Part shown: piece after piece, positions 1 to 15,118 of the stretch
Layout: each line of letters starts with the position of its first letter
How positions within the stretch are numbered: position 1 is the stretch's first letter
NCBI GenBank assembly: GCA_016180755.1
Contig: JACPAO010000064.1
Coordinates: 1-36,414, forward strand
Direction of reading: 5' to 3'
DNA length: 36,414 nt
DNA from: Methanobacteriota archaeon
Lineage (GTDB): Archaea > Thermoplasmatota > E2 > JACPAO01
Position numbers and translations under genes: made by a program
The notes under the pieces: generated by a model
What the model saw: the letters and a program-made list of their open reading frames with translations, nothing else
What the model was told of the DNA's origin: nothing
The model's database searches: none

Positions 1-812
1 CGGAAGAGCCGCGTCCACCGCTCGAGGAAAGGCTTCCGGAAGGCCGGGTCCTGCATCGCCCAGACCACAAGGGCCGGCTTCGACGCGAGCTTCGAGAGGC
101 CCGCCTCGATGCGATCCATCGTCGCCCAAGACTCGTGGTCCGGGTGATCTGTGGGAGGGATCATCTGGGCGAACCGGGCGACGCCCGTGCGGTCGGCGGG
201 CGTGGGGTGCGGCGCCCGGTACGGGGCGAGGTCCCGGTCGTTCTTTTTTTGCGCCTTCCCGATGAAGATCTCGGTGAAGACGTTCTTCTTCGTGGCGCGA
301 CGCCAGCCGCCCTTTCCGAGGACGAGGAACCGGAAGAGCCAAGGGAGCTTCATGGGCGGGTCGCGCACGAACGCCCACGTGTTGAACACGACGCAGCCCG
401 CGACCCGTTCGGGATGCGCCGTCGCCCACCCCATGCCGATCGGTCCGCCCCAGTCCTGGACCACGGGGACGACGTTCCGCGCCTTGAGGTGCGCAAGGAG
501 CTTCGTGAGGTTCTCGATGTGGCGGTCGAGCGAGTAGTACGCGGGGTCGCGAGGCTTGTCGCTTCGGCCGAAGCCGACGTAGTCGGGGACCACGACGCGA
601 TGGTGGCGGGCAAGCGGGCGGATGAAGTCGCGGTACAGGTAGCCCCACGTGGGGTTGCCGTGGAGCAGGAGGAACGTGACCGGCGCGTCCCGCGGGCCTT
701 CGTCCACGTACGCCATCTTGACGCCGCCCCCCACGTCGAGCCGCTGGCTTCGCCAGGGGAAGCGCCCTTCGAAGTCGCCCTCGACGTCGAGTCCGGTGTA
801 GACGCGGGCCAT
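1..812 (-). CDS. Haloalkane dehalogenase-like alpha/beta hydrolase (3' end runs off window)
   Basis: Not in the ORF track; translated by hand from ATG at 812: MARVYTG...MAYVDEGPRDAPVTFLLLHGNPTWGYLYR...VPDYVGFGRSDKP...VQDWGGPIG...VVFNTW. HGNPTW oxyanion and QDWGG nucleophile-elbow motifs fit the HLD/OleB family. Confidence 0.85.
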   Translation of the reverse strand, partial: MARVYTGLDVEGDFEGRFPWRSQRLDVGGGVKMAYVDEGPRDAPVTFLLLHGNPTWGYLYRDFIRPLARHHRVVVPDYVGFGRSDKPRDPAYYSLDRHIENLTKLLAHLKARNVVPVVQDWGGPIGMGWATAHPERVAGCVVFNTWAFVRDPPMKLPWLFRFLVLGKGGWRRATKKNVFTEIFIGKAQKKNDRDLAPYRAPHPTPADRTGVARFAQMIPPTDHPDHESWATMDRIEAGLSKLASKPALVVWAMQDPAFRKPFLERWTRLF

Positions 813-865
813 GGACGTCCGCGATGCGACGCATCTAGATAACGGGGACGCGGGTTGAGGGGAGG

Positions 866-1660
866 ATGCGTCTTCTGGTCCTTTCGGACCTCCACGTGGA
901 CTACCCCCAGAACATGCAACGGGCGCGGTCCATCGCCGACGCCTTCCTGAGGGAGGACGCCGAGGCGCTCGTGATCGCGGGCGACGTGAGCCACAAGCCC
1001 GACCAGATCGAGGCGGCCCTGCGGCTCTTCGACGGCTTCGGCGGGCCGCGCCTCTTCGTACCCGGCAACCACGACGTATGGGTCGTGCGCGGCCCGCCCG
1101 AGGACAGCTGGCAGAAGCTCGACCTCGTCGACGACGTCTGCCGCCGGAGCGGCTTCCACAACCTCGAGCGCCGGAACGCGACGGTCGGGCCCTTCACGTT
1201 CGTCGGGACCATGGGCTGGTACGATTATTCCTTCGCGAGCCCGGCCCTCGCCCTCCGCGAACAGGATTACGCCCGGAAGACCTGGCACGACCTCACCTAC
1301 ATGGACGCCAAGTACGCGAAGTGGGGAGAGCCGGACGCCGACGTTGCCGCGTGGTTCACCGCGGCCGTCCGCAAGCGGCTCCACGCGGCGGAAGGCCCCG
1401 TCGTCTTCGTCTCACATCACGTGCCGCTCGAGGAGCTTGTCCTTCGGCGCGGGCATGCGAGCTGGGACTTCTTCAACGCCTACATGGGTTCGCGGGAACT
1501 CGAGCACGTCGTCCGGACCGCGGGCGTCTCGCGGTTCGTCTTCGGCCACACCCACCGTCCCGTCACGTTCATCGGGCCGCAACGGTTCGTCATCAACAAT
1601 CCGCTTGGCTATCCACGCGAGGCGCTCAACCCGGTGCGGACGTCGTTTGACGTGACCTAG
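866..1660 (+). CDS. Calcineurin-like metallophosphoesterase
   Basis: Motifs DLH, GD, GNHD, SHH and GHTH in the canonical order. Confidence 0.9.
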   Translation: MRLLVLSDLHVDYPQNMQRARSIADAFLREDAEALVIAGDVSHKPDQIEAALRLFDGFGGPRLFVPGNHDVWVVRGPPEDSWQKLDLVDDVCRRSGFHNLERRNATVGPFTFVGTMGWYDYSFASPALALREQDYARKTWHDLTYMDAKYAKWGEPDADVAAWFTAAVRKRLHAAEGPVVFVSHHVPLEELVLRRGHASWDFFNAYMGSRELEHVVRTAGVSRFVFGHTHRPVTFIGPQRFVINNPLGYPREALNPVRTSFDVT

Positions 1661-1667
1661 GGTGCGG

Positions 1668-2723
1668 TCAGACCGCTGCCGGTTGCTGCTGGCTGACGCA
1701 GTGGATCGTGCCCATCCCCCAGACGAGGTCCTCGCAGCGGATCGGTACGACCTTCCGTCCGGGCAGGCGCTCGCCGAGGACGGCGGCGGCCCTCCGGTCG
1801 TTGGGGTGGCCGAAGGCCGGGACGAGGGCGACCTTGTTTCCGATGTAGAAATTGGCGTAGCTCGCGGGAAGCGGTTCCCCGTCGTCGGTCGCGACGCGGC
1901 CGGGCATCGGGAGCGGGACGATGCGGAAGGGTTTCCCACGGGCGTCGCGCATCGCCTTGAGCGCGGCGAGGTTCTTCTCGAGGATCGCGTGGTTCGGCTC
2001 GGCCTCGTCGGGCTCGACGGCGGCGACGATCGTGTTCGCGTCCGTGAACCGGGCGATGTCGTCGATGTGGCCGTCGGTGTCGTCGCCGACGATGCCCTCG
2101 TGGAGCCAGAGGACCTGTTCGACGCCCAGGTGGTCGCGAAGGGCGGCCTCGATGGCGGGCCGGCGAAGCGTGGGGTTCCGGTTCTTGTTGAGAAGGCACT
2201 GCTCGGTCGTGAGCACCGTCCCCGCCCCGTTCACCTCGATCGAGCCTCCCTCCATGACGAGGCCCGGGGTGAAGCGGCGCAGGCGCTGGATCGTGGGGAG
2301 GCGCTCGGGGATGCCGTCGTCCGGAAGGAGCGTGTCGTACTTGCCCCCCCAGGCGTTGAAGCGCCAGCGGTTGTAGGCGACCTCGTGTTTGTTTTTTTGT
2401 CCGCCCTTCACGAAGTTCGGCCCGTAGTCACGGATCCACGAGTCCGCCGTGCGCACGCGGTGGAAGGCGACGTTGTCGACACCCTCGTCGCGCAGGCGCT
2501 TCCTCACCTTCGCCTCCGACGCGGCGTCATCGACGAGGAGGTCGACCCGCTCGTGGGGCGTGAGGGCCCGCATCATCTCGACGAACGCGGCCTCCGCCTT
2601 CGGCACCCGGTCGGGCCACGTGACGGGGTCCTTCGGCCAGGCGAGCCACGTCGCCTCGTGGGGCTCCCACTCGGCCGGCATGGAGAATCCCAGCTCGCGC
2701 GGGGTCGGCGCCAACGGGATCAC
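1668..2723 (-). CDS. aguA: Agmatine deiminase (PPAD/AguA family)
   Basis: MPAEWEPHEATWLAWP, WIRDYGP, EGG, DDTDGHID, SYANF and terminal GTIHCVSQQQP. GTG start at 2723 overlaps the upstream TGA (GTGA). Confidence 0.93.
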   Translation of the reverse strand: MIPLAPTPRELGFSMPAEWEPHEATWLAWPKDPVTWPDRVPKAEAAFVEMMRALTPHERVDLLVDDAASEAKVRKRLRDEGVDNVAFHRVRTADSWIRDYGPNFVKGGQKNKHEVAYNRWRFNAWGGKYDTLLPDDGIPERLPTIQRLRRFTPGLVMEGGSIEVNGAGTVLTTEQCLLNKNRNPTLRRPAIEAALRDHLGVEQVLWLHEGIVGDDTDGHIDDIARFTDANTIVAAVEPDEAEPNHAILEKNLAALKAMRDARGKPFRIVPLPMPGRVATDDGEPLPASYANFYIGNKVALVPAFGHPNDRRAAAVLGERLPGRKVVPIRCEDLVWGMGTIHCVSQQQPAAV

Positions 2724-3619
2724 GCGTCCATGAACCGCTGCGTGATGGGGCCGTAGGCGTCGATCCGGCGGTCCCGGAGGAAGGGCCAGCCGTGGCGGAA
2801 GCGCTCGATGTCGCCGAGGTCGCAGTCCGCGTACAGGATCTCCTCGTTCGCCTCGCTCGCCTTCGCGACGACCTCGCCGAAGGGGTTGGCGACGAAGCTG
2901 TGGCCCCAGAAGTCGAGCTCGCCCTCGCGGCCGACGCGGTTGGGCACGGCGACGAAGACGCCGTTCGCGACGGCGTGCGAGCGCTGGATCGTCTGCCAGG
3001 CGTCGTGCTGCGCGACCTGGTGCTCCTTCTCGCCGATCCAGGTGCCGATCGCCGTCGGGTAGAAGAGGATCTGCGCGCCCTGCAGCGCCGTGAGTCGGGC
3101 CGCCTCGGGGTACCACTGGTCCCAGCAGACGAGGACCCCGATGCGCCCGAAGCGCGTGTCGAATGCCTTGAAGCCGAGGTCGCCGGGCGCGAAGTAGAAC
3201 TTCTCGTAGAACCGGGGGTCCTCCGGGATGTGCATCTTCCGGTACTTGCCGACGAGGGACCCGTCGGCGTCGATCACGACCGCCGTGTTGTGGTAGAGCC
3301 CCTGCGCCCGCTTCTCGAAGAGGCTCGCGACGATGACGACGCCCTGCTTCTTCGCTGCGTCGGAGAGCCGTTTCGTCGTCGGCCCGGGGATCGTCTCCGC
3401 GAGCGCGAAGTTCCGTGGGTCCTCTGTCTGGCAGAAATACTGGGACCGGAAGAGCTCCTGCAGGCAGACGATCTTGGCGCCCTTCTTCGCCGCCTCCTTG
3501 ATGCGTTCGAGGGCTTTCCCAAGGTTCGCGTCGGGGTCGGGGCCGCAGTGCATCTGCACGAGCGCCACGCGGACGGGACCGCCATTGTTTTTTTGTAAAA
3601 CCTTCCTGTTCGAGGCCAA
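2720..3619 (-). CDS. aguB: N-carbamoylputrescine amidase (carbon-nitrogen hydrolase)
   Basis: CLQELF, YRKMHIPEDPRFYEKFYF, VCWDQWYPEAAR and WPFLRDRR; coupled to aguA. TTG start about 26 nt after a TATA-like GCTAAAAG. Confidence 0.92.
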   Translation of the reverse strand: MASNRKVLQKNNGGPVRVALVQMHCGPDPDANLGKALERIKEAAKKGAKIVCLQELFRSQYFCQTEDPRNFALAETIPGPTTKRLSDAAKKQGVVIVASLFEKRAQGLYHNTAVVIDADGSLVGKYRKMHIPEDPRFYEKFYFAPGDLGFKAFDTRFGRIGVLVCWDQWYPEAARLTALQGAQILFYPTAIGTWIGEKEHQVAQHDAWQTIQRSHAVANGVFVAVPNRVGREGELDFWGHSFVANPFGEVVAKASEANEEILYADCDLGDIERFRHGWPFLRDRRIDAYGPITQRFMDA

Positions 3620-3680
3620 GGCGGCCGGTGAGAGAGGGCGGCGCCTTTTAGCTTTCGCCCGGCGCCGATGCGCTTTGCCC

Positions 3681-3971
3681 TCAACGGTCCGGAGGCATCG
3701 CCCGGGCGGGGACCTGGAAGCCTTGGGCCGCCGCGGTCCGCTCTACGACGATGGGCGCGGCGGCCTTCTGTTCCGCCGCCCAGGCCGTGATTGCGAGCAT
3801 CGGGCCGACGAAGAAGGCCTTTCCCAAGAAGTACACGCCCAGTGCGGACCAAACGACACCTTCTTGGTCGTCGCCCCAGCCCGTCTCGTTGAGTAGCCAT
3901 ACCCCGGCGCCCGCGCAGGCAACGCTCGCGAGCGCGCCGAACACCGACCCGATGACGAAGACCCTGCCCAC
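3681..3971 (-). CDS. Small 2-TM membrane protein, hypothetical
   Basis: C-terminal part of the 3681..5681 ORF from GTG at 3971 (GRVFVIGSVFGALASVACAGAGVWLL...VVWSALGVYFLGKAFFVGPMLAITAW); two hydrophobic helices; GAAGGTG upstream. Confidence 0.6.
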   Translation of the reverse strand: MGRVFVIGSVFGALASVACAGAGVWLLNETGWGDDQEGVVWSALGVYFLGKAFFVGPMLAITAWAAEQKAAAPIVVERTAAAQGFQVPARAMPPDR

Positions 3972-4124
3972 GCCGCACCTTCGCCACCCCGACCGGGCCG
4001 GCGCTACATCAAATCTGCCCCCCGGCGCGTTTATTAGCCCGGCCGGCGACGCCCGGGCGGCATGCGAAGCGGTAAGCGTCCGTCCAGTCTCCTTATCTTG
4101 GGCGTACGCACTCGTCGGTCTACC

Positions 4125-5450
4125 ATGCGAACGCACTGGATCTGGCCCCTCCTCGTGGGCCTTCTGTTGGTCCCGACCGCGAACGCCGGCTCCACGCTCG
4201 AGGACGAGTCCGTCCTTGCGGGGCCCGACTTCGTCGAACTCGAGGTCAGCGAGGTGGCCGACGGGGCCGAGGGCGCCTCCTGGTACAACCGAATGGACCT
4301 CGACGGTGATGGCACAGCGACCGAGCAGGAGACGTCGAAATGGTCGTTGGCGTGGAAGCTCGACGCGGCGGACGTGCCATCCTGCTTCGTAGGGTTCTCC
4401 TACGCGACCCTGGGCGGCGACGCGCCGATCGGCTTCGCCTCCGTGCGCAGGTCGGCCCTCACGTGGGAAAAGGACGGAGCGCACGCGGTGGGGCTCCTGA
4501 CCGTCGTCCGGCTCCAGTACGCCGCCACCTCCGGCGACGAATACAACGCCGCCCTCCACCTCTGGGAGCGCGACCAAGTGGAATCCGCGTACCGGTGCGT
4601 GACCGGCCGCGGCCACCGCCTGTTCGAGCACGAGGGGCCTCCGACGGTGATCCTCGATGTTTGGACCCCGCCCGGCGTCGAGATCGCCAAGCGCAGCGTC
4701 CACCCCTCGGAGTTCCGCGACAACTACTGCGACTGCAGCTCGACGGTCGTGTACGCCGACGCGTGCAACACCACGACCGGCGAATGCACGCATTCCGACC
4801 GCGAGCCCGAGACCACCTTCTATACCGTCCTCCAGTTCCGGCGCGATGGGATCGCGAAGGCCTACACGAACGAGATCCGCTTCCACGTGGGGCCCGCGTC
4901 GACGGACTGGTCCGCGATCCTTCTCGCGACGACCGGCCTCGGGGCCCTCGGGGTCGCGGCGCGCGTCACGTTCTCCGACTGGGGTCGCTTCAAGTTCCTT
5001 CCCTTCGTCCCGTTCTTCACGCGCATCACGAAGGCCAAGGCCCTCGAGCACGACCTGCGCGACGCCCTCAACACCTACGTCGCCGAGAACCCCGGCGCGT
5101 CCTTCGGCGAGATGCGGCGCCATTTCAGCGTGGGTCACGGGACCCTCATCCACCACCTTCGCGTCCTCAAGGAGCAAGGCTTCGTCTCGATGCGTCGGGA
5201 CAAGCTCAAGGCCCGCTTCTACAAGGTCGGCTTCCCGCTTCCCTCGACGCCGACGCTGAGCGACGAGCAGGCGCAACTCCTTCGCCTCGTCCAGGGCGAG
5301 CCCGGGCTGCGCCAAGTGGACCTCGCGGGGCGCGTCGGCCTCGCCCGGGAGAACGTGAAGTACCACCTCGGCGTCCTCGCCGAGGCGGGCCTTGTGCGCG
5401 TCGCGCCCGACGGACGGGCCCGGCGGTACTACCCCTCGGGCGCGAGTTGA
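4125..5450 (+). CDS. Membrane-anchored transcriptional regulator: signal peptide, extracellular domain, TM, tandem winged-helix (COG3398-like)
   Basis: MRTHWIWPLLVGLLLVPTANA signal; TM WSAILLATTGLGALGVAA; LEHDLRDALNTYVAENPGASFGEM...HHLRVL, then EPGLRQVDLA...VKYHLGVL. CCTTATC about 28 nt upstream. Confidence 0.85.
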   Translation: MRTHWIWPLLVGLLLVPTANAGSTLEDESVLAGPDFVELEVSEVADGAEGASWYNRMDLDGDGTATEQETSKWSLAWKLDAADVPSCFVGFSYATLGGDAPIGFASVRRSALTWEKDGAHAVGLLTVVRLQYAATSGDEYNAALHLWERDQVESAYRCVTGRGHRLFEHEGPPTVILDVWTPPGVEIAKRSVHPSEFRDNYCDCSSTVVYADACNTTTGECTHSDREPETTFYTVLQFRRDGIAKAYTNEIRFHVGPASTDWSAILLATTGLGALGVAARVTFSDWGRFKFLPFVPFFTRITKAKALEHDLRDALNTYVAENPGASFGEMRRHFSVGHGTLIHHLRVLKEQGFVSMRRDKLKARFYKVGFPLPSTPTLSDEQAQLLRLVQGEPGLRQVDLAGRVGLARENVKYHLGVLAEAGLVRVAPDGRARRYYPSGAS

Positions 5451-5498
5451 GCCCGGCCGAGGGCGCGTCCTTTTACGCCCCGGGGCCGTGGCGGGACC

Positions 5499-5873
5499 GT
5501 GCGCCCCCTCGCGGTCACGGCCCTCACGCTCACCCCCCTGCTCGTTCCCGTCGCCTTCGGCGCGTTCCTCGCCGCCAACTGCGAGGACGATTGGTGCCCC
5601 GGCGCCCTCCTTGAACTCGGCGTCGAGTTGGTTGTGGCGGCCGCGGTCATCGCCTCGGCGCAGTGGATCCTCGCGGCCCACGGGCTGCCCGCTTGGCGCG
5701 CCGCGCTCGCCGCGTGGACCCTCGCCTTCGGCCTCGCCGCGTTCGTCTTCGCGGCGTCGCAGGCGTACGAGCGGGACTGGATGCCCGCGTTGGCCGCGGT
5801 CTGGACGGCCGCCGGGCTCCTCGTTGGGAGTTTTGTCCTAGGCGCCAGGCGGCGGCCCACCGCGGCCCCCTGA
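5499..5873 (+). CDS. 4-TM hypothetical membrane protein
   Basis: Four hydrophobic segments; codon usage like neighbouring genes. Confidence 0.65.
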   Translation: MRPLAVTALTLTPLLVPVAFGAFLAANCEDDWCPGALLELGVELVVAAAVIASAQWILAAHGLPAWRAALAAWTLAFGLAAFVFAASQAYERDWMPALAAVWTAAGLLVGSFVLGARRRPTAAP

Positions 5874-5932
5874 TCGTCCGTTCGACGTGCGTACTAGCAA
5901 ATTCTTCTAACCCGTGGGACGCGCGGCGCGGC

Positions 5933-6343
5933 GTGGGCGACTACGTGGCCTTGGCCTTCAACGTGCTCGCCGCGGGGGTCTTCCTTGCGGCGGGCGTCGC
6001 GCACTTTTCTCCCGTGGAGGCGCCGGAAGACGTGCTCCGGGTCGTCGATGAGTTCGCGCCGGCCCCTTGCACGATCGATTGGTGCACGCTCGACCCGCTT
6101 CCCGCGTCCATCGATGCCTCGGTCGACTCGGCCCCCCAGGACGAAGAGGCGAAGGACGACGCCCTAGCGGAGGCCGGAAATGCGACGGTCCTGGAGCCAC
6201 GCGTCCTTGACGAGATCCGCACGACCTTTCCGACCGAGCCCGACGAGCGGACGAAGGGCTGGGAGAAGAAGTGGGGTCGGCAAGGGTGGCGCCCCGGGCT
6301 GCTTCGCTTGCGGGACGTTTACGTCCCTGACGCGGACGCGTGA
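5933..6343 (+). CDS. Hypothetical protein with N-terminal signal/TM segment
   Basis: GTG at 5933 after an AT-rich promoter-like stretch (5893-5910); hydrophobic YVALAFNVLAAGVFLAAGVA followed by an acidic region. Confidence 0.55.
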   Translation: MGDYVALAFNVLAAGVFLAAGVAHFSPVEAPEDVLRVVDEFAPAPCTIDWCTLDPLPASIDASVDSAPQDEEAKDDALAEAGNATVLEPRVLDEIRTTFPTEPDERTKGWEKKWGRQGWRPGLLRLRDVYVPDADA

Positions 6344-6461
6344 AACGGCGACGGAGTTTCGTCCCGGGACAACTTCGCGAAGGCCGCGAGGAACGTCCCA
6401 CAATCCTAGAATCCCGAACTAGGGTGTCCGCGGCCCACGCCTTAGGCCGGAGCGGGAATCG

Positions 6462-6914
6462 ATGATGGACCTCAACCACCCCAAACGCGCGCTTGCACTC
6501 GCGACCGCCGCCGTGACGCTCGTGGTCGCGGCGTTCGTCATGCCGGTGGCCTTCGGCCAGTCGCCGACGACGACGTCCCCCACCGCCACGACGACGTCCT
6601 GCCCGACGACATCCACGAGCGCCACGACTGCGACTGCCACCACCGCCACGTCGACGCCGGCCGGCACCCCTACTACGACAACTTCCACCACCACCTACGT
6701 CGCCTACCAGGGGACCGCCACGACGACGCCTTCGTGCCCCACGTCCGGTCCGACCAACATGACCGAACCGACCGACACGGGCTTCACGGGATTCCCGACG
6801 GATGACACGGGCGGATCCCCCGAGGGCGAGGGCGGCGCGCCGGCCCTTCTCTTGCCGATGGCGGCCCTGGCGGTCTTGGCCGTGGCCCTGGTCATCGAGC
6901 GGCGAAAGCGGTGA
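6462..6914 (+). CDS. Thr-rich secreted surface (glyco)protein with C-terminal TM anchor and basic tail
   Basis: Signal peptide, Thr/Ser/Pro low-complexity body, C-terminal GGAPALLLPMAALAVLAVALVIERRKR. Confidence 0.8.
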   Translation: MMDLNHPKRALALATAAVTLVVAAFVMPVAFGQSPTTTSPTATTTSCPTTSTSATTATATTATSTPAGTPTTTTSTTTYVAYQGTATTTPSCPTSGPTNMTEPTDTGFTGFPTDDTGGSPEGEGGAPALLLPMAALAVLAVALVIERRKR

Positions 6915-7230
6915 GGCGCGCGTTGCGCCTGCCCCGGCGCCCCCCCGGGGGAATGTTCCCGGGGAGGCCCGGCCACCAGGAACGCGGGCCGGTCTTCGGG
7001 CGTCCGGTACTGACCAGGCCGAATCAATCGTCGGCCTCGGCGTCGGCCATGGCCTTGAGCGTGCCGGGGCTCAACGACTCGAACAGCCTGATACGTTCGG
7101 CCGGGGCGAGTTTCCCGGGCTGATGCTTTCGGGCGTCGCGAGAGCCGGTCCCCGTCACGAAGTCTGACTCGCGGCCGGCGGCGAATATGTTTCCCGTTGG
7201 CGGCCGACTACCCGCTCCCGCCGCGGAAAG

Positions 7231-7303
7231 TGGGTCTGTCCGGATTTGAACCGGAGTCTCATGGTCCCGAACCATGAAGTATACCAAGCTAGCCCACAGA
7301 CCC
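7231..7303 (-). tRNA. tRNA-Pro (anticodon CGG), intronless, CCA not encoded
   Basis: Reverse complement GGGTCTG TG GGCTAGCTTGGTATACTT CATGG TT CGG GA CCATG AGACT CCGGTTCAAATCCGGA CAGACCC A: 7-bp acceptor stem, anticodon stem CATGG/CCATG, TTCAAAT T-loop. Confidence 0.95.
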
Positions 7304-7340
7304 AGAACGAAGGGGGCGAAGGGCCCAAGATGGGACTTCG

Positions 7341-7346
7341 TTTAAA
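7341..7346 (-). promoter_or_regulatory. TATA box (TTTAAA) for tRNA-Pro, overlapping the TAA stop of the upstream gene
   Basis: TTTAAA about 38 nt upstream of the mature tRNA 5' end. Confidence 0.6.
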
Positions 7347-8223
7347 CCCTGCGCGTCCGCTCGAGGAGGATGCGGGGCTTCGTGCCGGCGTCGGACGCCA
7401 CCGGAGCCACTGGTTCGGCCTGGGCCGCCTGGAGGTCCCCGATCGTGAGGGCGCGGCCCCACATCGCCCGGTCCTCCGCCTCGCGGGCGCTCTCCGCTCG
7501 GGCGAGGAGCCGCCGCCACGTGTGGCCCTCCTGCCGGTCCCGGCCCGCCTCGAGCCGGTGGCGGACGCTTCGCGTCATCGTGACGGCCTGGACCATGCTG
7601 AGGATGGCGCCGATCGCGACGCCGATGAGCGGGATGACCCTGATGACGATCCGGGAGTAGACGATGCGTAGGGCGCGCCGACCCAGGATGGGGAAGGCCT
7701 GCTCGAGCATGGATTCGCCGAGCTCGCCGGCAAGGTTCTTGAGCGCGGCCTTGCCCGGGTGGTGGTCCTTCCCGTGGAAGACGTACGGGAGCGCCTCCTC
7801 GAGGAGTTGGCGGTCGGAGCCACGGTGCCCTCGGAACAGGAGGAGCGTGATGACGTAGCTCAACTGCTCTTGGACCTGAAGCCCGGTCTCGAGAACGGTG
7901 GCGGCGACGACGCTCGGGATGGAGATGGGAAGGAACGGGATGATGCCGGGGACGCTCGACACGCCGCCGTAGACCGTGAGGCGCCGCACGAGGGCCCGCG
8001 AGGCCAGTCGCTCGAGCGTCGCCGGGTCGGCATCGGGGAATTTCCGCACGAGGTCCCCGGCGCGCTGGCGGGCAAGGGGGGCGGCGCGCAGGATGTGGGC
8101 GCGCACGCGGTCCTCAACGAACGCCTTGAAGGTCAGGCGGCTCCGGCGGTGCAACTTGAAGAGCTTGCGGTCGAGCTTAAGCTCCGCCCGGAACTCGTTC
8201 GCGTCCGTCGTGTCAGTCGCCAC
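7342..8223 (-). CDS. Hypothetical membrane-associated protein, EcsC-like
   Basis: GTG at 8223 downstream of TATATA (8274-8279). LVRRLTVYGGVSSVPGIIP...RVIPLIGVAIGAILS resembles the EcsC-type helical pattern; family call tentative. Confidence 0.65.
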   Translation of the reverse strand: MATDTTDANEFRAELKLDRKLFKLHRRSRLTFKAFVEDRVRAHILRAAPLARQRAGDLVRKFPDADPATLERLASRALVRRLTVYGGVSSVPGIIPFLPISIPSVVAATVLETGLQVQEQLSYVITLLLFRGHRGSDRQLLEEALPYVFHGKDHHPGKAALKNLAGELGESMLEQAFPILGRRALRIVYSRIVIRVIPLIGVAIGAILSMVQAVTMTRSVRHRLEAGRDRQEGHTWRRLLARAESAREAEDRAMWGRALTIGDLQAAQAEPVAPVASDAGTKPRILLERTRRV

Positions 8224-8308
8224 CTGGGTCCACCCACGCGTCGAAGCCGTCCGGTGTGCCAAATCGAGAGCGATATATAGCGTGTGGGTCCGGGTCGGGA
8301 CGCAAGAC

Positions 8309-9385
8309 CTACCGGGTCGCCGCGATCTCCTGCATCGTGGCCAGGGGCCCTGGATGCCGGCGGAAGTACTCCCGGACGGGTTCGAGGACCTCGTTCGTGT
8401 ACTTGGCGACGCCTTTCTTGAGGTCGGCCGGGTGGAGCTTCCCGCCGACGAACGCCGCCTCCAAGTGGGCGTAGGTCGCGAACGTGGCGGGGCCACCGAA
8501 CTTCTCCGGCCGGTCGACCACGAACGCCTCGGCCGGGTCCCGCTCGAGATGGCCCGCGAAGACGACCAGGCGGGCGAGGTCGAGGACGGGGTTTCCCTCC
8601 GCGGAGCCCTGCGGGCAGACCGCGCTGTTTATTTTTTGCTCAACAGCCTTCGCGTCGTCGTGGATGAGGATTCCGCTCTGCGGATTGCTCTTGCTCATCT
8701 TCGCCTCGATCGGGTCCATGCGACCTTGCGCCTGGAGCGAAGGCAGGAGCGGCGTGTGGATGGCAAGCGGCACTTTCTTGCCTAGCTTGTGCGCGACGTC
8801 GCGGGCGAGCATGTGCGCGTGGCGCTGGTCGAGGCCGCCGTAGGCGAGGTCGAGGTCGAAGTGGAAGATGTCCGCCACCTGCATGGCCGGGTAGATGAAC
8901 TTCGACATGTCGCGCTCGGCCTCCTCGGCCGACCGACCCAGGATGTCCATCGCGCGCTTCATGCGGGCGAGGCTCGTCGCCTTCGCCGTGCCGATGACGA
9001 GCGCCCAGTAGCTCGGGTCGTCGACGTAGTCGGACGCGTACAGGAACTCGACCCGGTCGGTCGGGACCCCGAGCGCCGCGAAGCAGTGCTTCATGTACTC
9101 CCCGCAGGCTTTTATTTTTTGCAGGTCCCCGCCGAGCTTGTCGTTGATCTGGGCGTGCCAGTCGGCAAGGAGCACCTTGACCTGGAGCCCCGCGTCGACG
9201 AGGTCGGTCACCTTGTCGGCCGTGATCTTCCACCCGAGGTGGACGCGGCCGCTCGGCTCGAAGCCGATGTAGGCCTTCCGGACGGCCCGGGCTGCGAGGT
9301 CGGCGGAGAGCTTCTCGGCCTCCGGTTCGGTCACGATCTCCGCTGTGTTGCGGCGAAGAAGCCCGAGGATCGAGGCGGGGTCCAT
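8309..9385 (-). CDS. tyrS: Tyrosine--tRNA ligase, archaeal type
   Basis: YIGFEPSGRVHLG (HIGH-like), LADWHA, YPAMQVADI, GGLDQR, KMSKS and LHPADLK. Confidence 0.96.
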   Translation of the reverse strand: MDPASILGLLRRNTAEIVTEPEAEKLSADLAARAVRKAYIGFEPSGRVHLGWKITADKVTDLVDAGLQVKVLLADWHAQINDKLGGDLQKIKACGEYMKHCFAALGVPTDRVEFLYASDYVDDPSYWALVIGTAKATSLARMKRAMDILGRSAEEAERDMSKFIYPAMQVADIFHFDLDLAYGGLDQRHAHMLARDVAHKLGKKVPLAIHTPLLPSLQAQGRMDPIEAKMSKSNPQSGILIHDDAKAVEQKINSAVCPQGSAEGNPVLDLARLVVFAGHLERDPAEAFVVDRPEKFGGPATFATYAHLEAAFVGGKLHPADLKKGVAKYTNEVLEPVREYFRRHPGPLATMQEIAATR

Positions 9386-9460
9386 CGGCCGACCGCAAGC
9401 GGGGCGCAATTGAAGTCGTTTGGGGTTGGGCGCCCGTAATTCTTGGGACTTACCCGCCCC

Positions 9461-9940
9461 TCAGTAGAGGATGTACAAGACGCCGTACAGGATGAGCCCG
9501 GTCGCGAGCGTCGCGTACCACAGGTTGGGGTAGTACCGCGCGATCCGCCGGTGCCGCTCGCGCACGTGCGGCGTCACCGTGACGACGATGCCGTTTCCGT
9601 CACGGACGGTGCCCTGCCGCGCGATGCGCCAGGAAAGGAAGGCGATCGTCAGCGCGCTGATCGCGATCGTGAGGTGGATGGCGAGGAGGGGGATGAACAC
9701 CCAGAGAGGGGCCGTTAGGCCGCGTTCGATGGTGTTCGTCGCCTTGATGACGTCCGTGATGAGGAAGGAGACGAGGAGGAAGCCGTTGAGGCCGAGGGTC
9801 GTGAGCATGAGGGTCCGGTGCGCGTGGACCTCGTTGCGGCGGATCCGGCGGACGCCCAGGTACACGAGGACGCTGATGACGAGCTCCCCCAGGATGAGAA
9901 GGTCGGTGGGGAGTCCTGCGTCCGTTCCGAAGAGCGCCAC
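9461..9940 (-). CDS. DUF420-family membrane protein
   Basis: Four TM helices with conserved His in HRTLML, LAIHL and HRRIAR...LW...TG. Confidence 0.75.
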   Translation of the reverse strand: MALFGTDAGLPTDLLILGELVISVLVYLGVRRIRRNEVHAHRTLMLTTLGLNGFLLVSFLITDVIKATNTIERGLTAPLWVFIPLLAIHLTIAISALTIAFLSWRIARQGTVRDGNGIVVTVTPHVRERHRRIARYYPNLWYATLATGLILYGVLYILY

Positions 9941-9992
9941 GGTCGTGGGGCACGTGGGGTCGTGGTTTAGGCTTTGCGGGGACGGGGCCAGG

Positions 9993-10748
9993 TTATTTTT
10001 TTGTGCCCAGGGCGTAGAAGAGGGGCAGGTAGTTGAGCTGCGTCCCTTCGCGTAGCGAGGCGACGTACTCCCGCTCCCAGGCCTGGACCTCCGCCGGCCC
10101 GAGCCCGGCGTCGGCGAGCGCGCGGTGGTAGAAACCCTTCTCGACCTCGTAGCTTGCGAGGTCCTCGTCGCAGGAGGGGATCCGGGGGTTGCTGAGCCCG
10201 ACCTCGGTCTCGAGGCCCGCCCGGACGAAGTAGGTGCGAAGCTTCCGCCCCGCGTGGGGGTCGCCGCCCTTGCGCTCGATCATGCGGCCCTGGAAGACCT
10301 GGTCGACGATGGGGTTCTCCGGGTAGTGCACCTTCCCGCCGTAGTCGGGCTCCATGGAAGCGAGCACGCGGCCGCCCCGTCGCGCGACGCGCGCGAGCTC
10401 GTCGGCGGCCTCCTGCGGCCGCTCGGCCCACATGAAAAGGAGGTTCGCGACGACGAGGTCGAAGGTCTCGTCCTCGAAGGGGAGCTTGTGGGCGTCGGCG
10501 CGGCGCAGCGTCACGTTGGGGACGCCGCGGAGCGTCGAGCGGGCGGCCTTCACCATCGCGTTGTCGAGGTCGACGGCCGTGACGTGCCCGTTGGTGAGAA
10601 GGCACAGGTCCCGGGTGACGCTTCCCGATCCGCAACCGACGTCCAGGATGCGCTTCGCGTCGGGGAGCCCGGCCCGGAAGTAGAGGGGATGCCGTACCGG
10701 GGCCGTCCGCAGGGCCTGCCGGTCGAGGCGCTCGAGGAATTGCCGCAG
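9993..10748 (-). CDS. Class I SAM-dependent methyltransferase (start uncertain; CTG at 10748 assumed)
   Basis: ILDVGCGSG motif I, AVDLD, ADAHKLPFEDETFDLV, RVARRGG and EPDY. Confidence 0.85.
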   Translation of the reverse strand: MRQFLERLDRQALRTAPVRHPLYFRAGLPDAKRILDVGCGSGSVTRDLCLLTNGHVTAVDLDNAMVKAARSTLRGVPNVTLRRADAHKLPFEDETFDLVVANLLFMWAERPQEAADELARVARRGGRVLASMEPDYGGKVHYPENPIVDQVFQGRMIERKGGDPHAGRKLRTYFVRAGLETEVGLSNPRIPSCDEDLASYEVEKGFYHRALADAGLGPAEVQAWEREYVASLREGTQLNYLPLFYALGTKK

Positions 10749-10795
10749 GTTTTTGGGCGTCCGTTTGGGCGACGTGTCGAACTCATCGACAACCC

Positions 10796-10803
10796 TTTTA
10801 TAA
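10796..10803. promoter_or_regulatory. Candidate bidirectional TATA box (TTTTATAA) between divergent genes
   Basis: The only TATA-like element between the methyltransferase and lipoprotein genes; about 30 nt before ATG 10834. Confidence 0.55.
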
Positions 10804-10833
10804 GTGCGGATGAACGGGGACTCGACCGCTGCC

Positions 10834-11613
10834 ATGTCCGTCCGAACCCTAGCTGCCGCCCTCATCCTCGTGTCGACCGCCCTTTCCGGTTGCTTCGCCT
10901 CCGCCAACAACACCAACCTCACCGCCGGCGCCGAGATCGTGCTGGATGCTTCGGCCTCGAGCGACCCCATGGGCGGGAACCTATCCTTCGCCTGGGACCT
11001 GGGCGACGGCAACTCGACGGAAGGCATGGTCACAAACCACACGTACGCCGCCGAGGGCAACTTCACGGTGACGCTGACCGTCGTGAGCGATGCGAGCCAG
11101 CTGAACGGATCCGCGAACCAGACGCTCGTCGTCGTGGCCGGCGCCGTCAAGGCCCGGGCTCCGATGACGTTCACCGACGCTTCGGGGGACGGGACGACGA
11201 ACTACCACGACCTGCGCCTGACCACGGTCTCCGACGACGCGGACCTGCTCACCATCAAGTTCACGACCGGCGCGGTCCAACCGAGCTCCGGCGACATGAC
11301 GGCCGTATGCTACCAGCTCTTCCTCAAGGCCGGCGCCGCGGCCGAGCTGCGGTTCGAGATCTATGGGGACGGAGGCGCCTACGTCCTCTACGACACGGGC
11401 TTGAACCGCGACGTCCCCGAAAGCACAACGAAGCTCGCGGGGACCGGGTTCACGACGACGGCGTCCTTTGAGAACCTCGGCATCAAGGGCGAGCCGGTCC
11501 CGCTCCAGGTGCGACTCGAGTCCTGGACCTGGGCCTGCACGCCCCAGGAAGGAAACCCGACCGCGAACGGGCCGCTGAAACTCGACGTCGCGGGTCCGTA
11601 CATGTACCAATAG
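10834..11613 (+). CDS. Lipoprotein with PKD domain and C-terminal DOMON/glucodextranase-like domain
   Basis: Lipobox LSGC; PKD signature LDASASSDP...FAWDLGDG...HTYAAEGNFTVTLTV; then FTDASGD...DLR..TV. Confidence 0.85.
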   Translation: MSVRTLAAALILVSTALSGCFASANNTNLTAGAEIVLDASASSDPMGGNLSFAWDLGDGNSTEGMVTNHTYAAEGNFTVTLTVVSDASQLNGSANQTLVVVAGAVKARAPMTFTDASGDGTTNYHDLRLTTVSDDADLLTIKFTTGAVQPSSGDMTAVCYQLFLKAGAAAELRFEIYGDGGAYVLYDTGLNRDVPESTTKLAGTGFTTTASFENLGIKGEPVPLQVRLESWTWACTPQEGNPTANGPLKLDVAGPYMYQ

Positions 11614-11925
11614 CCACCGGTCGCCGCGCGTCGCCTGTTCCCCGACACGCTCCCCGGGGTCCCCCGCGGGGGCGCCAGGATTGGCGCGCGTTGCCATTCG
11701 TCGGCCCGTGGGACGGGCGGATCGATACCGGGGCGTCCCCGTCTCGTAGCCCCGCGCAAACGCAAAGCCTCAAGTCGGCCGGACGCTAAACCTGCCATTG
11801 GACGAATACGCTTGCGGTCCAAAGCAAGAGAGGCGACCGTGCGCGCCTCGGTCGAAAACAACGGACGACCAGCGGGGCGTGCCCGCGAGGAAGGTCTGCG
11901 TCAAAAGCGCCGGCACCGTGAGCGC

Positions 11926-12411
11926 ATGTCCGACCTCGCCGGCGCCCACTGGAACGTCCAAGGGCACCGCGCGAAGCACGCGTACCTTGAGCGCATCCGC
12001 TCCGCCCTCGAGAAAGAGGGCTTCCAATCGACGGTCCTCCAGTGGCGGCACAAGGGACACGCCTACGGCCTCATCAAGGACCTCGGGGACAAACAGATCC
12101 ACGTCCGCGTCTACGAGGACGGCGTCGTGGACGCCGAGATCGAGATCCACAAGCGGTACCTCGAGCACCTTTGGTCCCCGCGGCCTTCCGCCCACAAGCA
12201 GGTCCAGAGGATCTTCACCAAGCACGGCATCCCGATCCATTTCGTGAACGAGAAGTACCTCCCGCAGGTCGGGGCGAACCGCAAGGTCTACCCCAAGATG
12301 CGCACCCGCGTTTCGCACCTCATCGCCGGGGCGGCTGCCGGGCTCGGTCTTGCCGGTCTCTACGTCGCGCGGATGTACCTTTCGCGCGTCAAGCGACGGT
12401 TCCCGCTCTGA
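11926..12411 (+). CDS. Hypothetical protein with C-terminal TM tail
   Basis: Host-like codon usage from ATG 11926; QIHVRVYEDG...DAEIE...EHL; hydrophobic LIAGAAAGLGLAGLYVA followed by a basic tail. Confidence 0.75.
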   Translation: MSDLAGAHWNVQGHRAKHAYLERIRSALEKEGFQSTVLQWRHKGHAYGLIKDLGDKQIHVRVYEDGVVDAEIEIHKRYLEHLWSPRPSAHKQVQRIFTKHGIPIHFVNEKYLPQVGANRKVYPKMRTRVSHLIAGAAAGLGLAGLYVARMYLSRVKRRFPL

Positions 12412-12420
12412 GGTGCGACC

Positions 12421-13308
12421 GTGGTGCGCGTGCTCGTCGAGTCCAGCCCGGATCCCGCAAGCGTCGGCATCGCGGACGCGTTACGAACGCGACCGGGATG
12501 GCACCGAACGAACGGCTCCTTCGAAGAAGCGCCGTTGTGGAGTCGCGGCGACACGCGTCTCGTCACGATCGACGAGGTCCACATCCATGCCGAGGGCCTG
12601 GACGAGCGGCTGCGGCGCAACGGCTTGGCGGCCTCCTCGATTGTTTTTTTATCAAAGCACAAGAGCCAGAGCGGTCGGCCGACGCTCACGGCGCATCCGG
12701 TGGGGAATTTCACGAAGGCGGACTTCGGCGGGACGCCGGGCCGGCTCACGCCGTGCCGCGGCGAACAGCTCACCCACATGCTGCGATGCCTCGACGTTGC
12801 CCGCCGCGCCCTCGAGTACCCCGCCGAGGTGGCGTACGAGACGACGCACCACGGACCCCTCCTTGACGTGCCATGCCTCTTCGTCGAGCTCGGCTCCTCC
12901 GACGCGCAGTGGGACGACCGCGCGGGGCACGAGGTCGTCGCGGAAGCCGTGACCCGGTTCCTCGACGCCGCGATCCCGTCCTATCGCATCGTCGCCGGCC
13001 TTGGCGGCGGGCATTACGCGCCCCGCTTCACCGAGGCCGCGCTGTCGAAGCAGGTCCACTTCTCCCACATGCTGCCGACGCATTACGCCAAGGCGGCCGA
13101 TCCGCCGTCCATCGCCGCCGAGATCCGCCGGGCGTCACCCGGTGCGGATGCCTTCTATTACCACGATGGGACGCTTCCTAGGGAGGTCCGCGAGCCGTGG
13201 TTCGCAGCCCTGCAGGCGGCCGGGCTCCGGAAGGTCGACTCCTCCGAATGGTCCCCGCTGGCCGGCCCGAACGCGTCACCTGGGGAGCCCGGCGGCCACA
13301 ACAGGTAA
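12421..13308 (+). CDS. dtdA: D-aminoacyl-tRNA deacylase (archaeal DTD2)
   Basis: SKHKS...PTLTAHPVGN, ETTHHGP, FVELGS and GGGHYAP. Confidence 0.93.
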   Translation: MVRVLVESSPDPASVGIADALRTRPGWHRTNGSFEEAPLWSRGDTRLVTIDEVHIHAEGLDERLRRNGLAASSIVFLSKHKSQSGRPTLTAHPVGNFTKADFGGTPGRLTPCRGEQLTHMLRCLDVARRALEYPAEVAYETTHHGPLLDVPCLFVELGSSDAQWDDRAGHEVVAEAVTRFLDAAIPSYRIVAGLGGGHYAPRFTEAALSKQVHFSHMLPTHYAKAADPPSIAAEIRRASPGADAFYYHDGTLPREVREPWFAALQAAGLRKVDSSEWSPLAGPNASPGEPGGHNR

Positions 13309-13387
13309 GTTTTGACAGGCCCACCAACAATGCTTTAAGGCTCGGCCCGGACTGGGCTTATATACTGAGAGAAACCGGGGTCCAGTG

Positions 13388-15118
13388 ATGCGGAACGCTA
13401 TCGGGGTCGCGGCGGCCGTCTTCCTCGCTCTCCTAGTCTTCCTCCCCTCCACCCAAGCCTCCCCTGGGAACCTGGTCGCCACCACCGGGGCCCCCGTGAA
13501 ACTCTACGGCGACGCCGCTGTCAAGGCCCGCGACGGCCTCGTCGTCCTCGATCCGGCCGAACCGCTCACCTTCCCGGCCTCGGGCGCGACCATCACCCAC
13601 GTCCGGGTCACAAGCTCCTTCGCGAGACTCCCCACCGGCGCCGAGATCCTGGGCGCGCGCGACATCGACTCCGAGCCCGTCGACGCCGAAGGCTCGACCG
13701 CCCGCCTCGTCCCGGCCTCGGACGCCTTCGTCTCCGTCCGCGCGCGCGACATCACCCTCTCCACGCGCCAGGCGACCGCCGAGGCCGAACCGCCCGCCGA
13801 CCTCTGGCGCGACGCCCACGCCCAACTTGGGATCCTCCTCGGGGACGAGACCCTCGGCCCCGCGTTGCCCGGCGTGCGCCTCGGCCAGGCCTCCGCCGAG
13901 GAACCGATCCCCGGCTTCGCCGCGCTTGCGGCAGGAACCTACGTCGCGGAGGCCTTCGGGTCCCGCGTCACCCTCAAGGCCGACGAGCTCGTCGTCGCCG
14001 GCGCCACCCTCGAGGTCGGCCCCCAGACCCTCGTCGCGGAGCGACGCACGACGCAGGCACCCGGCGCGGTCTTCGTCCCGGACGCCGACGGCGGGACCTG
14101 GACCGGCCCCGGCAGCCACTCCGAAGAGACCCTCGACTACTACGTCCTCGCGCTTCCCGGAGCGGGCTTCGACGTGACGGTCCGGGAGGCCGAACTCGTC
14201 TCGGGCGCCGTGTTCATCCTGCACGACGGCTTCGTCGGCCTGCCCTGGGCCGAAGGCAGCCTCGAGACGGACGCCGAGAACGTCCGCCTCCACGGGGAGC
14301 AGACGATCCTGGGCGGCGTGCTCCGGCTCCGGCCTGTCTCCGTCGACCTCGACGGGGCCCCCCGCATCACGCTCCTGGGCGACGGGGACGTCGCCTTCGT
14401 CCGCGTCGGCGTCGAGTCGACCACGTTCGCGAACGCCGAGGCCGCCGCTGTCGCGGGCGGCGCCGCGGCCGGTCTCGGGCTCGTCGCCCTCGCCGTCTAC
14501 TACTGGCCGACCCTCAAGTACGCCTTGAGCGCCGCCCTGCTCCCACTCTACGCGCGCGTGCCCAAGGAGCAGACCCTCGACCACAAGGGCCGCGAACTCC
14601 TTTACGACCTTGTGAAGAACGAACCCGGGATCAGCACGAACCAGCTCGCGAAGGAGGTCCCCTTCGGCTGGAGCACGCTCACCTACCACCTTCGGGTCCT
14701 CGAGCGGAACGAGGCCATTGTGAGCGTCCGCGACGGCCGCTACAAGCGCTTCTTCGACCGCGCGAGCGGCCGCTTCAGCAACGGCCGCAAGTACATCCTC
14801 GCCGTCCTCAAGAACGACGCGACGCTCGGGATCGCGCGCTTCATCAAGGAGAAGCCGGGCTCGAGCCAGAAGGAGGTCGCCGGCACGTTCCAGCTCTCCC
14901 CGTCGAGCGTGCACTGGCACGTCGAGCGCCTCAACGAGGTCGGCCTCGTCGAGAAGATCCGCGAGGCCCACAACGTGAAGTACTTCCCGGGCGAGGCGTG
15001 GGGCCACGTCACGTTGGAGGACCTCAAGACGCTCGAGCCGAAGCCGGACGCGCCGGGGGGAGCCACCGTTGTGCAACCGGCCACGGTCCCCGGCGCCGAT
15101 GCCCAGCCCTCTGCGTAG
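13388..15118 (+). CDS. Membrane-anchored transcriptional regulator: signal peptide, ~330-aa extracellular beta-rich domain, TM, tandem winged-helix (COG3398-like)
   Basis: Signal MRNAIGVAAAVFLALLVFLPSTQA; TM; PLYARV...LDHKGRELLYDLVKNEPGI...YHLRVLE and second HTH KPGSSQKEVA...VHWHVERL. TTATATA at 13358-13364. Confidence 0.88.
   Translation: MRNAIGVAAAVFLALLVFLPSTQASPGNLVATTGAPVKLYGDAAVKARDGLVVLDPAEPLTFPASGATITHVRVTSSFARLPTGAEILGARDIDSEPVDAEGSTARLVPASDAFVSVRARDITLSTRQATAEAEPPADLWRDAHAQLGILLGDETLGPALPGVRLGQASAEEPIPGFAALAAGTYVAEAFGSRVTLKADELVVAGATLEVGPQTLVAERRTTQAPGAVFVPDADGGTWTGPGSHSEETLDYYVLALPGAGFDVTVREAELVSGAVFILHDGFVGLPWAEGSLETDAENVRLHGEQTILGGVLRLRPVSVDLDGAPRITLLGDGDVAFVRVGVESTTFANAEAAAVAGGAAAGLGLVALAVYYWPTLKYALSAALLPLYARVPKEQTLDHKGRELLYDLVKNEPGISTNQLAKEVPFGWSTLTYHLRVLERNEAIVSVRDGRYKRFFDRASGRFSNGRKYILAVLKNDATLGIARFIKEKPGSSQKEVAGTFQLSPSSVHWHVERLNEVGLVEKIREAHNVKYFPGEAWGHVTLEDLKTLEPKPDAPGGATVVQPATVPGADAQPSA

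Follow-up and report, generated by a model that had tools for sequence, protein, structure and literature searches.

A genus-specific T-rich nucleotide word kept over codon preference in a GC-rich archaeon, with a possible role as a stop or pause for RNA polymerase

Within the first 12.7 kb of a 36,414-nucleotide (nt) stretch of DNA from a Methanobacteriota archaeon (GenBank assembly GCA_016180755.1, contig JACPAO010000064.1; hereafter the window, 68.3% G+C) lie seven runs of six or seven T. Sequence comparisons indicate that these runs are copies of one selected, genus-specific, cis-acting nucleotide word, kept by purifying selection over codon preference. We consider the word to be a selected signal because it is enriched over synonymously shuffled coding sequence, because its synonymous positions are conserved at the level of the base within the genus, and because it is restricted to that one genus. 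Scanning the window for homopolymer runs revealed ten T runs of at least five (five T7, two T6 and three T5) and, on the + strand, no A run of five or more over the 36,414 nt. All seven T6-7 runs are on the + strand, each is preceded by TT and then C, G or A, and the base that follows is G in six and A in the copy within dtdA; none was found from 12,651 to 36.4 kb. A first-pass annotation of the window had described seven near-identical tracts in these terms, as its only T6+ runs and with no A6+ run on the + strand; the scan confirmed both points, the second down to A5, and the other details of that description which were checked were also correct.

The word was defined by pooling 64 copies from the window's own genome (G000; 2.31 Mb in 163 contigs, 67.5% G+C, 75% complete) and from a congener (G001). 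In IUPAC letters it reads W-TT-[G>A>C]-T6-8-G-Y and is asymmetric: W stands at position -4 in 43 of the 64 copies, position -1 is G in 41, A in 13 and C in 10, and the run, which is T6 in 17 copies, T7 in 38 and T8 in 9, is followed by G at +1 in 57 and by Y at +2 in 59. The same flank signature marks the T7-8 runs of G000 (n = 59; T at -3 in 29, T at -2 in 31, G at -1 in 28 and G at +1 in 35); its T5 and T6 runs are without it and mostly have C as the next base. A or T runs of at least six number 162 in the 2.31 Mb, and the word occurs there 30 times as TT-V-T6-8 and 24 times as TT-V-T6-8-R, about once per 77-96 kb. Seven of the 30 copies fall within 12.5 kb of the window, a number never reached in 20,000 random placements of 30 copies (maximum six, once); the seven copies form a true cluster. 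Eleven of the 30 are intergenic and have the same flanks as the coding copies, and several intergenic copies sit in divergent promoter regions. The host genes are mixed housekeeping genes, encoding TyrRS, SerRS, ABCE1, RFC, HerA, PurD, malic enzyme, QueC, CtaA/B, an aminotransferase and others. A regulon was rejected, as these assorted hosts have no common pathway.

Selection at the nucleotide level was assessed by permuting synonymous codons within each of 1,651 open reading frames (ORFs) of G000 over 100 rounds. With the A run in sense, that is with the T run antisense to the gene, the word was observed 15 times against a shuffle mean of 0.68 (maximum 4), and with T in sense three times against 0.45. 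The backwards control, the same word read in reverse, was not enriched in these shuffles (1 against 0.65 and 0 against 0.33). A second run on the 3' two-thirds of 1,514 ORFs only gave 9 against 0.34 with A in sense and 2 against 0.14 with T in sense, and the word was found to be 22-26 times commoner in coding sequence than in codon-preserving shuffles. Other homopolymers are depleted in coding sequence, to 0.58 of the shuffle value for A4, 0.49 for A5, 0.73 for T5, 0.63 for G5, 0.68 for C5, 0.43 for G6+ and 0.41 for C6+, and A7+ and T7+ are enriched over it 2.1- and 2.4-fold, so that long A/T runs oppose a general avoidance. The codon strings of the window copies are very improbable because the codon usage of G000 so rarely takes them: AAA makes up 11.8% of Lys codons, CAA 22% of Gln, ATA 1.7% and ATT 5.3% of Ile, TTA 0.6% of Leu, TTT 7.4% of Phe and GTT 5.5% of Val. 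The first-pass annotation had held that the motif forces codons avoided elsewhere and that it is a selected DNA-level signal, to be judged by a count against such shuffles; codon usage agrees with the former, and the shuffles, together with the conservation and genus restriction described below, with the latter.

In G001, five of the six window copies open to comparison are present at the same codons, in proteins only 58-74% identical; the aguB copy fell outside the comparison because the G001 contig starts inside aguB. The copy that is not conserved is that of the hydrolase gene: in G001 this gene, only 36-47% identical to that of G000, lies in an interval bounded by motif copies at 861 and 8112 and free of any other copy. 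At the aguA site G001 has the same codons (CAA CAA AAA AAC AAT), and G002, from a sister genus, is without these three codons. In a codon alignment of 20 tyrS orthologues of the order, the tyrS copies are base-identical only in G000 and G001, and the remaining orthologues besides G002 have ordinary GC-ending codons at both sites. G002 itself has GAG AAG AAG ATC GGC at the first site (8629..8638) and a partial match, GAA AAA ATC CAA, at the second (9112..9121). Both copies are also identical in L070 and L071, two further metagenome contigs of the clade that were used for the tyrS comparison; their TyrRS is 81% identical to that of G000 and 93% to that of G001, and the synonymous positions adjoining the unchanged copies vary. 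The TyrRS of G001 and of G002 are 74% and 72% identical to that of G000, and yet G002 is without the copies. The methyltransferase-end copy reads ACA AAA AAT AAA in G001 and ACA AAG CGT TAA in G002. At the dtdA site the same residues, (I/L)VFLS, are encoded by ATT GTT TTT TTG TCA in G001, by CTC GTG TTC CTG AGC in G002 and by CTC GTC TTC CTC AGC in G003, another sister-genus genome. Synonymous positions in orthologues, to which the first-pass annotation had also looked as a check on selection, are thus kept in G001, L070 and L071 and replaced by ordinary codons in the sister genera.

Beyond the window, 42 G001 copies were compared with G000 and 22 could be aligned across the site: 11 were shared, one was partly shared and ten were private to G001. 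At the ten private sites G000 encodes the same residues by common codons (for example TAC TTC TTC where G001 has TAT TTT TTT). Identity of the shared copies is 100% over the core as against about 75% in the flanks, and the conserved stretch is only about 11-12 nt long. Conserved copies make up 8 of 15 with A in sense and 1 of 4 with T in sense, numbers too few to compare. TTGTTTTTTT was counted 16 times in G000 (backwards 2), 29 times in G001 (backwards 8) and once in each of three comparison genomes (G002, G003 and G005); TT-V-T6-K was counted 57 times in G001 (backwards 20), four times in G002 (backwards 4) and four times in G003 (backwards 1). Among 197 genomes of the class, TTGTTTTTTTG stands out within the window's order only in G000 (10 versus 1) and G001 (21 versus 3), with 0-3 copies in the other 36 genomes of the order. 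Because it is elevated within the order only in these two genomes, we take the word to be a novelty of one genus. TTGTTTTTTTG is plentiful in other families, but there it equals its backwards controls; these are probably the A/T-richer families. Four DNA runs from a single groundwater study were assembled independently, and the resulting contigs span the T runs at 2392, 8632, 9115, 9996 and 12644 with zero indels, at a low depth of about 5x. Since the independent contigs agree and copies recur in other assemblies, the copies are not a sequencing artefact, and the homopolymer error that the first-pass annotation had named as a possible refutation was not upheld.

Genes were placed in the window by positional G+C, six-frame translation and Pfam, and the seven copies are listed in Table 1. 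Five lie inside genes and one makes up the final codons and the stop of a methyltransferase gene; the aguB copy is found at the very beginning of the gene or in its leader and is not securely intragenic. The reading frame is unchanged through every coding copy in the window. Upstream of the aguB copy lies a promoter-like GCGAAAGCTAAAAGG, and the methyltransferase-end copy is about 50 nt upstream of the DUF420-tyrS genes.

Table 1. Copies of the T-rich word in the window, with the run of T, its orientation relative to the associated gene and the codons affected.
Copy	Position	T run	Strand	Word	T run relative to gene	Location	Codons in sense
1	241..251	244-250	+	TTC-T7-G	antisense	within alpha/beta-hydrolase gene (-)	GCG CAA AAA AAG AAC
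2	2389..2399	2392-2398	+	TTG-T7-G	antisense	within aguA (agmatine deiminase, 1668-2756, -)	GGA CAA AAA AAC AAA
3	3585..3595	3588-3594	+	TTG-T7-G	antisense	5' end or leader of aguB (N-carbamoylputrescine amidase, 2720-3619, -)	
4	8629..8638	8632-8637	+	TTA-T6-G	antisense	within tyrS (8309-9409, -)	GAG CAA AAA ATA AAC
5	9112..9121	9115-9120	+	TTA-T6-G	antisense	within tyrS (8309-9409, -)	CTG CAA AAA ATA AAA
6	9993..10003	9996-10002	+	TTA-T7-G	antisense	final codons and TAA stop of methyltransferase gene (9993-11174, -)	ACA AAA AAA TAA
7	12641..12651	12644-12650	+	TTG-T7-A	sense	within dtdA (12421-13308, +)	ATT GTT TTT TTA TCA

Several further features were observed around the copies. A promoter-like word spotted by eye, GCGAAAGCTWAAR, which has the appearance of a B recognition element (BRE) followed by a TATA box, recurs upstream of three genes: at about 3648-3664 (-) of the window upstream of aguB, at about 9960-9976 (-) upstream of DUF420-tyrS, and at about 31212-31228 (+) on contig C46 of G000. 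On the same contig (31151-31211), four T/A runs of 7-8 lie inside 60 nt of a divergent intergenic region, which is flanked by a lipoprotein-like gene and a small + strand gene; this arrangement is partly common to contig C9 of G001 (1186-1242). Contig C282 of G001, only 1.9 kb long, has two copies 1.2 kb apart (594-604 and 1832-1841) with a further common upstream flank of about 15 nt (TTG-S-TCTGCATTCAATTA), which suggests a local repeat carrying the word. In the window, the tyrS operon has a tRNA-Pro (CGG) gene (7230-7303, -) downstream of it on its own strand, and this gene is followed only by TTTCC, without a long T run. An ORF of 384 amino acids (7342-8496, -) with an atypical codon-position G+C pattern overlaps the 3' end of tyrS; no match to it was found in G001, G002, G003 or G005, and it may be restricted to the species or may not be a real gene. 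The organism is marked as an archaeon by DtdA, ribosomal protein S6e and HVO_0163-type regulators. Three very large + strand ORFs (2,425, 1,677 and 987 amino acids) between 17842 and 33610, a region without any copy of the word, probably encode surface proteins; the largest has no Pfam match, and the other two have bacterial TSP3 repeats and an Ig-like domain.

Orientation was counted over G000 and G001 together, so that copies common to both genomes enter twice, and dtdA was assigned from its own frame. The T run is antisense in 34 of the gene-associated copies (18 in G000 and 16 in G001) and in sense in eight (2 and 6), and eight of the nine conserved gene-associated copies have A in sense. 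Adjacent copies on one contig agree in strand in 26 of 34 pairs tallied in the two genomes. In the block syntenic with the window, represented in G001 by contigs C2 (57 kb, nine copies), C235 (three) and C49 (one), 12 of 14 copies are on one DNA strand, though five have T in sense. On contig C92 of G000 and its G001 counterpart the orientations are +, +, -, + and track the genes, not the DNA strand; here the converging HerA and malic-enzyme genes have one copy each, facing one another. When local GC skew is taken on the T strand, 17 copies have a positive value and 13 a negative one, and skew tracks gene direction (r = -0.55). The observation of the first-pass annotation that the dtdA copy keeps its DNA orientation is true of the window and of G001, but such strand-keeping does not generalise, as C92 shows. 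A DNA-strand rule and a gene-strand rule are not separable in assemblies as fragmented as these.

As a leading guess, ranked first with a DNA-binding-protein site nearly as likely, we tentatively propose that the word is an oligo-T stop or pause for RNA polymerase, directed mostly against antisense or read-through transcripts. The word would be read as a U/T-rich single-stranded tract in the RNA made from the T strand, and at this tract the archaeal polymerase would stop or pause strongly without a hairpin, either intrinsically or with the aid of the cleavage factor aCPSF1/FttA. Copies opposing their host gene would halt antisense or read-through transcription before it runs across housekeeping genes or into the next promoter, and the few sense copies, such as that in dtdA, may be internal attenuators setting a gene apart from its upstream neighbour. 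Polymerase pausing follows a rule of a pyrimidine and then G, which is matched by T and then G in 57 of the 64 copies. The loose register, with six to eight T between the flanks, fits a tract read single-stranded better than a rigid duplex site. Terminator-like intergenic copies occur in G000 on C81 (T8, 17 nt past a stop codon between converging genes), directly past a gene on C110 and 229 nt past a gene on C163; the facing copies in the converging HerA and malic-enzyme genes of C92 fit a stop as well. A surveillance system of comparable logic is Nrd1-Nab3 of yeast, whose motifs selectively terminate antisense and cryptic transcripts through a eukaryotic factor pathway: there too, short words are commoner antisense to genes than in messages and the surveillance factor spares the gene. 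Unlike the word described here, which is 10-13 nt long, is present in tens of copies and has a modest antisense excess over the coding null, the Nrd1-Nab3 words are of 4-5 nt and occur at high density.

Oligo-T is an established archaeal termination signal. In GC-rich Haloferax volcanii, according to the study in PMC7237163, a T5C tract ended 95% of transcripts and the terminators of one gene often lie within a converging gene of the opposite strand; a review (PMC13675443) describes oligo-T termination without a hairpin and recognition of U tracts by aCPSF1. The word resembles these terminators in having at least five T on the non-template strand (all seven window copies, with T6-7, and all 64 copies, with T6-8), in being hairpin-free, in that it can sit within the coding region of an opposite-strand gene and in belonging to a type of signal that is strong even in a GC-rich archaeon. 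Unlike them, it is longer (6-8), has fixed asymmetric flanks, almost never stands at the ends of the organism's own genes, is conserved between species at synonymous sites, occurs also in sense within genes and is confined to one genus. The authors of PMC7237163 regard oligo-T tracts as hardly placeable in coding sequence that is GC-rich, which is where the present word stands. No conserved intragenic oligo-T word is reported in the archaeal-termination literature considered, which leaves aside the supplementary tables of PMC7237163, where intragenic Haloferax sites may be listed.

Several results weigh against a polymerase stop. The antisense excess (34 of 42) is modest, because the shuffle null alone gives 60-71% A in sense and shared copies are counted twice. 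T-in-sense copies are themselves enriched 7-14-fold over shuffles, and the conserved dtdA copy is in sense, where a strong stop would cut the transcript of its own host gene. Just two or three of the 30 G000 copies, those on C81, C110 and C163, lie shortly past a same-strand gene. T5+ was found within 120 nt past the stop codon of 37 of 1,436 G000 ORFs against 34 of 1,436 for A5+, with flat T content, and the 40 tRNA genes of G000 are followed by T2-4 only; together, these gene ends without oligo-T and tRNA genes with short T runs suggest that termination in this lineage is independent of long T tracts. T5 in sense, relative to its shuffle value, is no lower than G5, C5 or A5. Copies are no nearer to the closest upstream T-strand gene than random antisense positions are (median distance 2,116 against 1,625 nt). 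The fixed TT-G prefix and G-Y suffix are not explained by a bare U tract, and sister genera do without the word altogether. Hairpins upstream of the T run are not in excess (mean -11.1 kcal/mol against -10.9 for random 40-mers), a result that excludes a bacterial-type terminator only. Terminators of converging genes were rejected, the copies being no closer to converging gene ends than random positions are. The first-pass idea of U-tract terminators that silence antisense transcription thus finds agreement in the 34 antisense copies against eight, and disagreement in the null, in the enrichment of sense copies, in gene ends without oligo-T and in distances like those of random positions; among the specific proposals made at that stage, it is the only one to survive, and as no more than a leading guess.

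That the word is instead bound as DNA by a sequence-specific protein peculiar to the lineage, which might be a roadblock, an organiser of chromosome domains or a global regulator, with gene orientation secondary, is a real possibility, if not a probable one. It would account for an asymmetric word with informative flanks, for the enrichment of both gene orientations over shuffles by similar factors, for the strong clustering (seven copies in 12.5 kb, and again on C2, C235 and C49 of G001), for the strand shared by 12 of 14 copies of the syntenic block despite five with T in sense, and for the intergenic position of about a third of the copies, several of which lie in divergent promoter regions; restriction to one genus would follow if the protein reading the word arose within the lineage. 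Set against this, the length of the T run between the flanks differs by as much as 2 bp, which rigid duplex readers seldom tolerate, strand coherence breaks on C92, and no candidate reader was found among the double winged helix-turn-helix (wHTH) and chromatin genes examined. Proteins with a C-terminal double winged helix (HTH_HVO_0163_N plus HTH_24/MarR) are encoded in the window at 4062-5450 (+) and 13385-15118 (+), and the first double-wHTH gene of the cluster is without a full-length orthologue in G001. Their family, which is greatly expanded and varied in its N-terminal parts, was rejected as the reader because it is present in all five genomes searched, with 40 tblastn matches in G000, 44 in G001, 49 in G002, 15 in G003 and 21 in G005. 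The 384-amino-acid ORF at 7342-8496, private to G000, was set aside as a candidate reader too. The chromatin proteins, one HU/HTa-type gene and one weak histone-fold match, were rejected because both are common to sister genera without the word; histone exclusion, proposed in the first-pass annotation, is not supported for the same reason, and it would also leave the asymmetric flanks unexplained. A more specific version, in which a genus-specific factor marks a chromosomal domain or blocks polymerases one way, as an archaeal counterpart of matS/Ter/parS punctuation with about 30-60 sites mostly in essential genes, is a possibility only slightly weaker than the general one. ParB and MatP bind palindromic sites of constant length, parS and matS respectively. 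The word shares with these sites a few tens of copies, regional clusters, intragenic conservation at synonymous sites of housekeeping genes and lineage restriction; unlike these fixed-length, usually palindromic sites with a cognate protein, it is asymmetric and variable in length (T6-8), and no genus-specific binder was identified among the double-wHTH, chromatin and private-ORF candidates.

It is improbable that the word is read in messenger RNA as an unstructured A-rich stretch, C-A7-CAA, set in messages that are otherwise GC-rich and highly folded, where a ribonuclease would enter or cleave, an RNA-binding protein would bind, or the ribosome would land or pause. The preponderance of A in sense (34 against eight, and eight of nine conserved copies) would be consistent with this, as would copies just upstream of start codons, such as that upstream of aguB and an intergenic insertion on G001 contig C158; A4 and A5 are moreover the most avoided A/T homopolymers (0.58 and 0.49), which suggests that A runs are costly in messages. 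A single RNA reader, however, cannot see both orientations, and enrichment extends to copies with T in sense, whose flanks are the same; the dtdA copy is moreover conserved, and intergenic copies are found in both orientations relative to their neighbours. A known RNA family was rejected, as the sole Rfam match in the window was the tRNA-Pro and eight loci holding intergenic copies gave none, and an extended RNA element was rejected given the short conserved stretch. A replichore-oriented motif that guides a translocase or a recombination nuclease, like Chi or the FtsK-orienting polar sequences (KOPS), as the first-pass annotation had suggested, is very improbable. The seven window copies on one strand, with the oppositely oriented dtdA included, and the co-oriented adjacent pairs and syntenic-block copies speak for it; like Chi and KOPS, the word is a species-specific short asymmetric sequence set in genes by synonymous codon choice, with local strand agreement. 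Chi and KOPS/SRS (SpoIIIE recognition sequences) are G-rich, replichore-oriented and placed every few kb chromosome-wide, at a density of 1 per 4-15 kb, their readers being RecBCD/AddAB and FtsK/SpoIIIE. Unlike them, the word is some 10-20 times rarer and clustered, with 7 of 24-30 copies in 12.5 kb where a high, even density would be expected, has no consistent relation to GC skew, and follows gene direction in part, as on C92; the orc1/cdc6 genes are on C138 and C161, both without copies, which also led us to reject proximity to an origin. Nor are the tens of copies (30 in G000, 57 in G001) the hundreds to thousands of a DNA uptake sequence, another early suggestion. That the copies are conserved clusters of rare codons slowing the ribosome for co-translational folding, with the DNA word as a by-product, is hardly tenable: every coding copy is indeed a string of rare codons, their rarity is conserved among congeners and both orientations occur, but the backwards word shows no enrichment although its codons are just as rare, AAC, a common codon (93.6% of Asn), is retained where a C is called for, the 11 intergenic copies of G000 have the same flanks, and other A/T-rich islands within genes are scarce. 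The word occurs in all three reading frames and is therefore not a codon-level or frameshift device; a programmed frameshift was rejected on this ground and because the frame is unbroken across coding copies. Least credible of all is an absence of function, through chance, homopolymer sequencing or assembly error, or a lineage mutational habit of lengthening A/T runs. Homopolymers are error-prone, and the private copies of G001 and G000 were made by several synonymous changes, as such a habit would make them, but this reading is largely refuted by the lack of indels in independent contigs from four runs, by copies in four assemblies of the clade, by the shuffle and cluster statistics, by the contrast between the fully conserved core and its flanks, and by a TyrRS in G002 that is equally close yet without copies. 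An artefact of contig ends was rejected as well, about 13-16% of copies lying within 700 nt of ends where a rough estimate expects about 10-12%, with no clear enrichment.

These results describe a short non-coding signal written over protein-coding sequence in an extremely GC-biased archaeon, one that overrides codons used at 0.6-12% and has been held through the whole divergence of a genus; it is a statistically strong and unusually clean case. The word is short enough for direct trial in existing archaeal reporter systems. If the copies are protein-binding sites, they would suggest a new chromosome-organising or roadblock system in Thermoplasmatota-like archaea. Should they prove to be polymerase stops, no conserved oligo-T insulators within genes would have been described in archaea before them, and they would belong to a lineage whose genes otherwise end without oligo-T; such stops would be relevant to the control of antisense and read-through transcription in archaea.

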